NCBI RefSeq assembly: GCF_055900595.2
Contig: NZ_CM148325.1
DNA length: 64,000 nt
Strand: one strand, 5' to 3'
Translations under genes and position numbers: made by a program
Shown: in pieces, positions 4,846-8,461 of the stretch
Position numbering within the stretch: the first letter of the stretch is position 1
Layout: every line of letters starts with the position of its first letter
The notes under the pieces: generated by a model
Told to the model about the DNA's origin: nothing
Databases searched by the model: none
The model's input: the letters and a program-made list of their open reading frames with translations, nothing else

Positions 4846-6210
4846 ATGAACGATTATAAAATGACGCCAGGTGAGCGGCGCGCGACCTGGGGTTTAGGGA
4901 CCGTATTTTCATTGCGCATGCTGGGCATGTTTATGGTACTGCCGGTTCTAACTACGTACGGTATGGCACTGCAAGGTGCCAGTGAAGCATTAATCGGTAT
5001 TGCCATTGGTATTTATGGCCTGACTCAGGCCGTTTTTCAGATTCCGTTTGGCCTGCTTTCCGACCGCATTGGTCGCAAACCATTAATTGTCGGCGGGCTG
5101 GCGGTGTTTGCCGCCGGTAGCGTTATCGCTGCGCTTTCCGACTCTATCTGGGGAATTATTCTGGGCCGGGCGTTACAAGGTTCTGGAGCGATTGCCGCTG
5201 CCGTTATGGCGCTACTTTCTGATCTCACGCGCGAACAAAACCGCACCAAAGCGATGGCGTTTATCGGCGTGAGTTTTGGCATTACCTTCGCCATTGCGAT
5301 GGTACTTGGCCCTATCATCACTCACAAACTTGGACTGCACGCGCTATTCTGGATGATCGCTATTCTGGCAACGACCGGTATTGCGTTGACCATTTGGGTT
5401 GTGCCCAACAGCAGCACGCACGTACTTAATCGTGAGTCCGGAATGGTGAAAGGCAGTTTCAGCAAAGTGCTGGCAGAACCGCGACTGCTGAAACTCAACT
5501 TCGGCATTATGTGTCTGCACATGCTGCTGATGTCGACGTTTGTTGCCCTGCCCGGACAGTTGGCTGATGCGGGGTTCCCGGCGGCTGAGCACTGGAAGGT
5601 CTATCTGGCGACGATGTTAATCGCCTTTGGCTCGGTTGTGCCTTTCATTATCTACGCGGAAGTTAAGCGCAAAATGAAGCAAGTCTTTGTCTTCTGCGTC
5701 GGGCTGATCGTGGTTGCGGAAATTGTGTTGTGGAACGCACAAACGCAGTTCTGGCAACTGGTGGTCGGCGTGCAGCTTTTCTTTGTGGCGTTTAATTTGA
5801 TGGAAGCCCTCCTCCCCTCGCTTGTCAGTAAAGAGTCGCCAGCCGGTTACAAAGGTACGGCGATGGGCGTTTACTCCACCAGCCAGTTTCTTGGCGTGGC
5901 CATTGGCGGTTCGCTGGGTGGCTGGATTGACGGCATGTTTGACGGTCAGGGCGTATTTCTCGCTGGCGCAATGCTGGCCGCTGTGTGGCTGGCTGTCGCC
6001 AGTACCATGAAAGAACCGCCGTATGTCAGCAGTTTGCGCATTGAAATCCCATCGGACATTGCCGCAAACGAGACGTTAAAAGTGCGTTTGATGGAAACTG
6101 CGGGTGTCAAAGAAGTGTTGATTGCAGAAGAAGAACATTCAGCTTATGTGAAAATCGACAGCAAAGTGACGAATCGCTTTGAGGTTGAACAGGCAATTCG
6201 TCAGGCATAA
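4846..6210 (+). CDS. yajR: MFS transporter YajR
   Basis: 454 aa from ATG 4846 (MNDYKMTPGERRATWGLG); multi-TM MFS protein. Confidence 0.92.
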   Translation: MNDYKMTPGERRATWGLGTVFSLRMLGMFMVLPVLTTYGMALQGASEALIGIAIGIYGLTQAVFQIPFGLLSDRIGRKPLIVGGLAVFAAGSVIAALSDSIWGIILGRALQGSGAIAAAVMALLSDLTREQNRTKAMAFIGVSFGITFAIAMVLGPIITHKLGLHALFWMIAILATTGIALTIWVVPNSSTHVLNRESGMVKGSFSKVLAEPRLLKLNFGIMCLHMLLMSTFVALPGQLADAGFPAAEHWKVYLATMLIAFGSVVPFIIYAEVKRKMKQVFVFCVGLIVVAEIVLWNAQTQFWQLVVGVQLFFVAFNLMEALLPSLVSKESPAGYKGTAMGVYSTSQFLGVAIGGSLGGWIDGMFDGQGVFLAGAMLAAVWLAVASTMKEPPYVSSLRIEIPSDIAANETLKVRLMETAGVKEVLIAEEEHSAYVKIDSKVTNRFEVEQAIRQA

Positions 6211-6222
6211 AAAACGAGGCGA

Positions 6223-6312
6223 ATTGCCTGTTGCGCTACGCATATCAGGCCTACAAAGTTCCTGAGTGACAAATCTTTGTAGGCCGAATCAGGCGTTCAT
6301 GCCGCATCTGAC
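6223..6312. repeat. REP/BIME palindromic units
   Basis: Two inverted REP-like units (gcctgttgcgctacgcatatcaggcctac ... gtaggccgaatcaggcgttcatgccgcatctgac) downstream of yajR. Confidence 0.75.
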
Positions 6313-6337
6313 ATGAACAAAGCGCAGGTTGTCGCGA

Positions 6338-6829
6338 TTAATCGCGGAAGTTTTTGAACTGGAACGGCTGACCCAGATCGCCACCACGTACCATCGCCAT
6401 GACAGCCTGCAAATCATCACGAGATTTGCCCGTCACACGGATCTCATCGCCCTGAATTTGCGCCTGCACTTTCAGTTTGCTGTCTTTGATCATCTTGACG
6501 ATTTTCTTCTGGGTCGCGCTTTCAATGCCCTGTTTCAGTTTCGCTTCCACAAACCAGGTTTTACCGCTATGAACGATATTTTCCGGTACATCCAGCGAAC
6601 TGCCTTCAATGCCGCGCTTCAGCAGCTTGGCACGCAGAATATCCAGCAACTGATTGACCTGGAAGTCGGACTCGCTCAACACTTTGATGGTTTTGCTGGC
6701 GTCGTTCAGCTCAAATGAGGCTTCAACGTTACGGAAGTCAAAACGGGACTCCACTTCGCGGCTCGCGTTATCGACCGCGTTTCGTGCTTCCTGAAGATCA
6801 ACTTCAGAGACAATATCGAAAGATGGCAT
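6338..6829 (-). CDS. yajQ: nucleotide-binding protein YajQ (UPF0234)
   Basis: 163 aa from [20 protein letters not shown]; the ORF-track 56-aa N-terminal extension was not used. Confidence 0.92.
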
Positions 6830-6908
6830 CTTTTCCTCTCCCTTCATTTTTGATGCGAAGCATAATACCTGCAAAGTTAAATAACCGACAGTCCTGCACC
6901 AGGACGTA

Positions 6909-6952
6909 TCCCTTAATTGTGCATAGTCGCAACAGCATGCACAATTAAGGGA
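6909..6952. promoter_or_regulatory. 16-bp perfect inverted repeat in the divergent yajQ-panE intergenic region
   Basis: tcccttaattgtgcat (6909..6924) and atgcacaattaaggga (6937..6952) with a 12-nt spacer. Confidence 0.5.
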
Positions 6953-6996
6953 TAGCCTTATTGAACACCCGGAGTGGTTGCGGGTGAGGAGGAACA

Positions 6997-8461
<1,465 letters not shown>

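Follow-up and report, generated by a model that had tools for sequence, protein, structure and literature searches.

What purpose does a long perfect palindrome serve between two divergently transcribed genes, and does it act as DNA, as RNA, or as both? The question is raised by an inverted repeat in the spacer between yajQ and panE, within a 64-kb stretch of E. coli DNA that is referred to as "the window" in this study. Most probably, this palindrome has two jobs: as RNA, it forms the RNase III hairpin of a long yajQ leader, and as DNA, its arms carry a core promoter. The first of these is already in the literature, where the palindrome appears as a hairpin that RNase III cuts in the long leader of yajQ. 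We therefore regard it as a minor, largely explained feature with core biology that is already known, and not as a new regulator site; little changes for the field because the main function has been published. What is added here is the promoter embedded in the arms, the implied twin of that promoter facing panE, and the history of the element as an insertion.

Coordinates and comparisons

The window is inverted relative to K-12, and a position in NC_000913.3 equals 451512 minus the window position, as checked against the sequence. The published transcription start sites (TSSs) 443640, 443827, 443882 and 443902 of U00096.2 correspond to window positions 7096, 6909, 6854 and 6834, respectively. 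For the comparison between species, 80 yajQ loci of species representatives were used together with targeted look-ups; the Escherichia sample comprised E. coli and E. albertii only, obtained by cluster look-ups and one PanE homology search. Cleavage of the hairpin and the roughly two-fold yajQ mRNA stability with RNase III are published results of others. The identification of promoter P3 as the source of the substrate and the placing of the P2 start within the palindrome combine published TSSs with the coordinate mapping of the present analysis. The features are collected in Table 1.

Table 1. Positions in the window of the palindrome, the promoters and the RNA elements of the yajQ-panE spacer
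Feature	Position	Strand	Description
Palindrome, left arm	6907-6924		TATCCCTTAATTGTGCAT; 3' arm of the hairpin in yajQ-sense RNA
Palindrome, loop	6925-6936		12 nt, non-palindromic; AGTCGCAACAGC on the plus strand
Palindrome, right arm	6937-6954		ATGCACAATTAAGGGATA; 5' arm of the hairpin in yajQ-sense RNA
yajQ distal promoter P3	7096-7108	minus	-10 TACAAT (7108-7103); TSS G 7096 (Kim 2012; Ettwiller 2016)
yajQ middle promoter P2	6909-6944	minus	proposed -35 TTGTGC (6944-6939), 17-bp spacer, proposed -10 CACAAT (6921-6916)
yajQ proximal promoter P1	6854-6867	minus	-10 TATTAT (6867-6862) within GGTATTATGC
Minor yajQ-strand TSS	6834		weak, score 2.3
yajQ Shine-Dalgarno	6835-6842	minus	GGGAGAGG
Predicted mirror promoter to panE	6917-6952	plus	-35 TTGTGC (6917-6922), 17-bp spacer, -10 CACAAT (6940-6945)
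CCUCCUC tract of the P3 leader, candidate anti-Shine-Dalgarno	6986-6992	minus	antisense of the panE Shine-Dalgarno GAGGAGG; thermodynamic prediction
Small hairpin GUCCUG-GUG-CAGGAC	6891-6905	minus	P2 transcript positions +5 to +19; next to the RNase III hairpin, on its 3' side

The palindrome and its hairpin

The two genes diverge: yajQ is read leftward, its minus-strand ATG ending at 6829, and panE is read rightward from a plus-strand ATG at 6997. The spacer between them is 167 bp. The earlier note on this DNA had placed the palindrome correctly between these two starts. It had described perfect arms of 16 bp around a 12-nt loop; the repeat and its loop are real, but the arms are 18 bp each, so that the length was understated (K-12 arms: 444558-444575 and 444588-444605 of NC_000913.3). 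With loops of 3 to 20 nt allowed, this is the longest perfect inverted repeat of the window, the second-longest having arms of 13 bp. In thirty first-order Markov simulations of the window, the longest repeat had arms of 8 to 12 bp; the length of the palindrome is far beyond chance.

No further copy of an arm was found in the window with up to three mismatches allowed (0.02 expected). The palindrome is single-copy and was found in 5424 of 5426 complete E. coli genomes, and the 61 bp centred on it are identical in 5344 of those 5424. With one locus per E. coli genome, it is not a dispersed repeat (REP/BIME, ERIC/IRU or MITE) or the end of an IS element; the second "place" that a search returns per genome comes from the match of the palindrome to its own opposite strand. 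An origin from a mobile element was likewise rejected, as there was no phage match and the only "plasmid" matches were to Mb-sized E. coli replicons, which are mislabelled chromosomes.

When folded as RNA, the palindrome has a free energy of -30.2 kcal/mol (z = -6.4), and none of 200 shuffled sequences was equally stable. The duplex has 18 perfect pairs, or about 22 to 24 when flanking pairs and pairs within the loop are included (-30 to -31 kcal/mol). It is thus a long, near-perfect duplex of about two helical turns, as in an RNase III stem-loop. An intrinsic terminator, which had been dismissed from the start, can indeed be set aside: the stem is A+T-rich rather than G+C-rich, there is no T-run on either strand, and a terminator scan returned no site in 6700-7100. 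A search of Rfam 15 gave no match over 6907-6954 at E <= 10. The likeness of an arm to the region of the yajQ Shine-Dalgarno sequence (16 of 21 positions) is at about the chance level for a 400-bp region.

Transcription starts and promoters in the spacer

A single yajQ TSS, at 443640(+) in older K-12 coordinates and with a 5' UTR of 267 nt, was reported by Kim 2012; that dataset has no panE TSS and also misses P1 and P2. Cappable-seq, which records 5'-triphosphate ends, gave four positions on the yajQ strand (Ettwiller 2016): 443640 (score 35.9), 443827 (43.2), 443882 (63.7) and 443902 (2.3). The distal start, P3, lies inside the panE coding region in antisense orientation and yields the 267-nt leader with the hairpin. 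As the palindrome is downstream of this TSS, which was mapped in two independent datasets, the duplex is transcribed on the yajQ strand, and the hairpin is present only in P3 transcripts. The proximal start, P1, is an A at U00096.2 443882, the strongest of the four, with a leader of 25 nt; its GGTATTATGC motif is invariant in 15 of 15 aligned Enterobacteriaceae spacers.

The middle start, P2, falls within the palindrome itself. Its TSS is an A (U00096.2 443827, NC_000913.3 444603) exactly 7 nt past the hexamer CACAAT, and its 80-nt leader is without the hairpin. Although this TSS is published, the assignment of hexamers to it is ours. So assigned, P2 would be wholly inside the palindrome, which spans its positions -45 to +3, with the putative -35 in one arm and the putative -10 in the other. 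Hexamer spacing and the distance of about 7 nt from -10 to TSS are those of a sigma-70 promoter, and 7 of 12 consensus positions match, including A2 and T6. The hexamers are weak at 7/12, and a generic promoter scan with a threshold of 9/12 reports no site in the spacer. These -35 and -10 hexamers of a mapped promoter had been missed in the earlier note.

Because the arms of the palindrome are perfect complements, a copy of the same core promoter is predicted to face panE. From -45 to +3, this mirror promoter is the P2 sequence except for the central 12 nt of its spacer, and the 12-nt loop lies in the middle of the 17-bp spacer in each of the two promoters. By symmetry, a panE TSS is predicted at A 6952 (K-12 444560, minus strand), with a 45-nt leader. 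A symmetric bidirectional promoter has TSSs on both strands; here the yajQ-strand TSS is mapped and the panE-strand TSS is predicted. In the search for a panE-strand TSS, neither yajQ nor panE was listed in the supplements of SMRT-Cappable-seq and Adams 2021, and full-text literature searches for the TSS coordinates or for a "bidirectional promoter" at yajQ-panE returned nothing relevant.

Cleavage by RNase III

Gordon, Cameron and Pfleger (2017; mBio 8:e00128-17, PMC5371410) reported a novel RNase III site at NC_000913.3 444573, annotated as "Intergenic (panE-yajQ)". This position is 6939 in the window, inside the right arm and 3 nt from the loop. Together with the position of the palindrome inside the 267-nt yajQ 5' UTR (Kim 2012; Ettwiller 2016), it bears out the structured leader element that had been the less favoured suggestion for this repeat. 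The site was found by comparing RNA-seq coverage between the wild type and an rnc deletion strain, aligned to NC_000913.3, with 96 reads at 444573 in the rnc mutant versus 2 to 3 in the wild type (PMC5371410). A long double-stranded hairpin was predicted in the yajQ 5' UTR, T7 transcripts were cut by purified RNase III with the cuts mapped by 5' RACE, and the yajQ mRNA half-life was about 6 min in the wild type versus about 3 min in the rnc mutant (Gordon 2017, PMC5371410). The same authors pointed out that a complementary hairpin could also form in panE-sense RNA, and they proposed a stabilising 5' hairpin (PMC5371410).

Which strand is cut in vivo deserves attention. According to the primers, both in vitro templates start within the neighbouring gene (PMC5371410), so the in vitro work proves that the hairpin is cleavable, and not which strand is cut in the cell. 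The in vivo RNA-seq may not have been strand-specific. Given both points, the in vivo cut strand rests on the P3 TSS. The stabilisation of yajQ mRNA by RNase III is modest (two-fold), and its mechanism is a candidate only. One such candidate is the small hairpin of Table 1, which lies close to the start of both the processed mRNA and the P2 mRNA and may act as the stabiliser proposed by Gordon 2017.

Folding of the yajQ leader

Within the full 267-nt P3 leader, the hairpin forms with a pair probability of about 1.0. In the same leader, the yajQ Shine-Dalgarno sequence is predicted to pair with the CCUCCUC tract (p = 0.46-0.9), and the predicted probability that the yajQ AUG is unpaired is 0.05, versus 0.5 to 0.97 in the shorter isoforms. 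The mean accessibility of the yajQ Shine-Dalgarno sequence is no higher in the shorter isoforms because local pairings form there instead, and only the pairing partner and the accessibility of the AUG differ. An RNase III cut might thus free the yajQ ribosome-binding site from the candidate anti-Shine-Dalgarno tract. As the shorter isoforms make local Shine-Dalgarno pairings of their own, we offer this, on the strength of thermodynamic modelling, as a weak hypothesis only.

Evolutionary history

Among the 80 yajQ loci and the look-ups, the perfect dyad was found only in E. coli and E. albertii. Members of the C. freundii complex (C. werkmanii, C. youngae, C. braakii and Citrobacter sp. FP75) carry a homologous but degenerate dyad in a 174-bp spacer. 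The block was absent from the sampled Salmonella, Klebsiella, Enterobacter, Leclercia, Lelliottia and Pseudescherichia, and from C. amalonaticus and Citrobacter sp. RHB25-C09. In C. amalonaticus and C. farmeri, the same spacer backbone carries 9 bp in place of a block of about 60 to 70 bp, and it is because of this backbone that the dyad is considered to have arrived as an insertion.

The degenerate dyad was seen in six loci of the C. freundii complex, of which four were folded and gave -6.9 to -21.7 kcal/mol. The outer positions of the arms drift, and the inner parts that bear the hexamers are invariant: TTGTTC-N18-TACAAT toward yajQ and TTGTAC-N18-AACAAT toward panE are kept in all six. To judge from these alignments, what Citrobacter has conserved resembles a pair of promoters and not a helix.

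Two further changes set Escherichia apart. The -10 hexamer TACAAT of P3 occurs only there, by way of a synonymous TGT Cys codon in panE; other genera have TGCAAT, TGCAGT or TACAGT at this position. Next to the insertion point, a panE-sense TATACT (TATAAT in Salmonella) is widely conserved and has been destroyed in Escherichia. These observations suggest that: an ancestral panE promoter may have been replaced by one inside the dyad; and the stem may have turned perfect in the lineage that began transcribing through the palindrome. Both suggestions, and with them the connection of P3 to the perfect stem, are drawn from a single lineage.

The spacer SNPs sampled in Escherichia spare the arms, and one of them, carried by the E. 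coli locus L087, is in the loop. A comparison of E. coli with E. albertii shows no differences in the 48 bp of the palindrome and 4 in the 119 bp of the rest of the spacer, which is not a statistically significant contrast. Common SNPs of the neighbouring spacer are at spacer positions 110 and 127.

Discussion

The following sequence of events would account for the data. According to published work, transcription from P3 (TSS 7096) runs antisense across the panE start and through the spacer. The 18-bp arms of the resulting RNA fold into an extended duplex, RNase III cuts it, and the downstream yajQ mRNA lasts about twice as long as the uncut form. The RNase III product would be approximately the same as the P2 transcript, the cut in the 3' arm being expected about 13 nt upstream of the P2 TSS, a distance estimated from the published cut at 444573 plus a 2-nt stagger. 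In the DNA, the 48-bp palindrome would be a core promoter, with TTGTGC in one arm and CACAAT in the other, 17 bp apart. The mirror promoter would serve panE and compete with P2 for RNA polymerase, which could occupy the palindrome in one orientation at a time. Hairpin cleavage might also detach the anti-Shine-Dalgarno tract and release yajQ translation, although this last step is a weak inference. The block that carries the element is an insertion of about 60 to 70 bp shared with the C. freundii complex, and its stem is perfect only in Escherichia, the lineage with P3.

A more ambitious reading would join these parts into a three-way coupling of yajQ and panE through: competition between back-to-back promoters with reciprocal -35 and -10 elements; antisense overlap; and RNase III processing that detaches the anti-Shine-Dalgarno tract. 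According to this reading, the arrangement was recently assembled from the insert and accompanied by the loss of the ancestral panE -10 (TATACT/TATAAT) in Escherichia. Taken jointly, we consider this coupling possible but rather doubtful.

The RNase III site between panE and yajQ in Gordon 2017 and the palindrome are the same object. Not in that paper are the promoter borne by the hairpin (TSS 444603, with hexamers in the arms) and its panE-facing copy, nor the insertion origin and the finding that only Escherichia has P3 and the perfect stem. The palindrome is comparable to the hairpins of aceEF and pflBA, where an RNase III hairpin holds the -35, the -10 and the TSS of an internal promoter (Gordon 2017, PMC5371410). 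As in these operons and in metY-nusA-infB P2, a hairpin made by read-through encloses a downstream promoter. For this reason, namely that the hairpin holds -35, -10 and TSS, the RNase III product of that class nearly equals the internal-promoter transcript. The palindrome differs from aceEF and pflBA in that its -35 and -10 are in opposite arms, so that the promoter is duplicated on the other strand; yajQ is absent from the internal-promoter class as given by Gordon 2017. In adhE, RNase III removes a structure that occludes the ribosome-binding site and thereby raises expression. The yajQ leader would be alike only under the anti-Shine-Dalgarno hypothesis, in which a cut upstream would release the Shine-Dalgarno sequence and AUG and increase both translation and stability, and the predicted occluding partner would be the distant CCUCCUC tract and not the cleaved stem.

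Bidirectional promoters driven by symmetry reportedly share a single pseudo-symmetric -10 region, and their two TSSs lie some 18 bp from each other. The palindrome is different, as each -35 would overlap the other promoter's -10, and the TSSs would be 43 bp apart, the panE-facing one being predicted. The likeness to that class, as described by Warman et al. 2021, is that RNA polymerase binds in either orientation, with divergent transcription and mutual exclusion.

Several other explanations of the palindrome were weighed against its two proposed jobs. The back-to-back promoter pair could be the sole selected function, the hairpin and its cleavage by RNase III being by-products of read-through from P3. 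We think this unlikely, even though, in the C. freundii complex, both strands keep invariant hexamers around a decaying stem, the mapped P2 TSS is about as strong as those of P1 and P3, and the effect of RNase III is just two-fold. Complementarity at 18 of 18 positions is not needed for a promoter. Moreover, the extra pairs outside the hexamers (ATCCCTTA/TAAGGGAT and GCAT/ATGC) nonetheless match perfectly in Escherichia and are unchanged in 5344 of 5424 genomes, and the perfect stem coincides with the gain of P3.

That a dimeric or tetrameric transcription factor co-regulates yajQ and panE with the palindrome as its operator, the explanation preferred at first, is very improbable. Perfect dyad symmetry, a location between divergent genes and overlap with promoter elements would all suit an operator, and in vitro binding of NtrC, the sole regulator reported for the spacer, has been recorded there by gSELEX, with a peak at U00096.2 443846 (about 6890 in the window). 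However, arms of 18 bp with a gap of 12 bp, and hence with centres 30 bp apart, are far larger than the half-sites of known operators. Salmonella, Klebsiella, Enterobacter, Leclercia and C. amalonaticus lack the element in spite of having the same divergent gene pair, and in Citrobacter the outer arms drift while only the hexamer-bearing inner parts are kept. The arms contain no match to the NtrC or sigma-54 consensus even with three mismatches, and the gSELEX peak is beside the palindrome, near a half-site-like sequence, TGCACCA, at 6895-6901. Counts of NtrC and sigma-54 motifs across the window were at or below chance. Short conserved half-sites matching a known motif were not found; motifs of the CRP, FNR and PdhR type were excluded on half-site spacing in a comparison by eye, and a literature search found no paper naming a regulator for the palindrome.

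Just as hard to credit is a neutral insertion relic, or a quasi-palindrome perfected by template switching, that RNase III and RNA polymerase use incidentally. Mutation by template switching is well known to "correct" imperfect palindromes, and the element is confined to one lineage, arose by insertion, matches no Rfam family and has no significant excess of conservation in our sample. Against this stand the measured effect on yajQ mRNA half-life (Gordon 2017, PMC5371410), a mapped TSS of substantial strength within the palindrome, and a sequence that is near-invariant in the E. coli collection and E. albertii while the neighbouring spacer has common SNPs. Neither a relic nor a promoter pair by itself fits the perfect 18-bp stem and the half-life effect as well as the two-job reading does.

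If the palindrome is indeed both RNase III hairpin and promoter, it would offer a worked example of a single sequence that works as a promoter in DNA and as an RNase III substrate in RNA. It would also be a case of regulatory turnover that can be dated: an insert would have brought new promoters; a synonymous change of a panE codon would have made an antisense promoter; and the stem would have been perfected in the one lineage where it is transcribed. Should the panE-facing promoter prove real, the spacer would be a natural model of mutually exclusive divergent transcription with reciprocal -35 and -10 elements, unlike the class with a shared -10.

Other features in and around the spacer

The P3 transcript covers, in antisense, the panE ribosome-binding site and the initial 100 nt of its coding region (6997-7096). 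The divergent mRNAs therefore overlap head-to-head, by about 145 nt if panE starts at 6952, and this overlap could give antisense or RNase III-dependent cross-regulation of panE. Directly 5' of the panE Shine-Dalgarno sequence, with an overlap of 1 nt, 6966-6986 forms a stem of 6 bp with a 9-nt loop. It reads CACCCG...CGGGTG in E. coli and E. albertii and CACCTG...CAGGTG in most other genera; this compensatory double change suggests a conserved structure in the panE leader.

The NtrC-half-site-like TGCACCA at 6895-6901, beside the gSELEX peak near 6890, is inside a small palindrome, GTCCTGCACCAGGAC, in which no full NtrC site was found. On the minus strand, the yajQ frame is open across the whole spacer to a TTG at 6997, giving a 219-aa ORF (6338-6997). 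The roughly 56 stop-free codons are probably due to chance (p of about 0.07).

Two records carry other changes in the spacer. In NZ_LT883142.1 (E. coli), the spacer matches only from query position 54 on, with a second matching place in the record, which suggests an insertion or rearrangement between the proximal yajQ promoter and the palindrome, near 6883. In an Enterobacter-like genome (L011, MAG OH_SBB_50), the yajQ-panE spacer is interrupted by another insertion, about 45 bp long, GTTGAGTGACTCCGTCACCGCCTTCCTGCAACTCGAATTATTTGGGG, at alignment columns of about 156 to 213, which presumably resembles part of an ERIC/IRU repeat. The yajQ-panE spacer seems to accept insertions repeatedly.

Beyond the 3' end of yajQ, a perfect inverted repeat with 13-bp arms, AACAGGCAATTCG-N19-CGAATTGCCTGTT, at 6188-6232 straddles the yajR stop codon (6210). 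REP-type palindromic units occupy 6210-6330, between yajR and the yajQ 3' end, with weak, sub-threshold Rfam matches to the REP-derived sRNA families naRNA4, ES036 and STnc390; REP40a is placed next to yajQ in one paper's table. Among these units, at 6248-6285, is a perfect 11-bp inverted repeat, GGCCTACAAAG...CTTTGTAGGCC.
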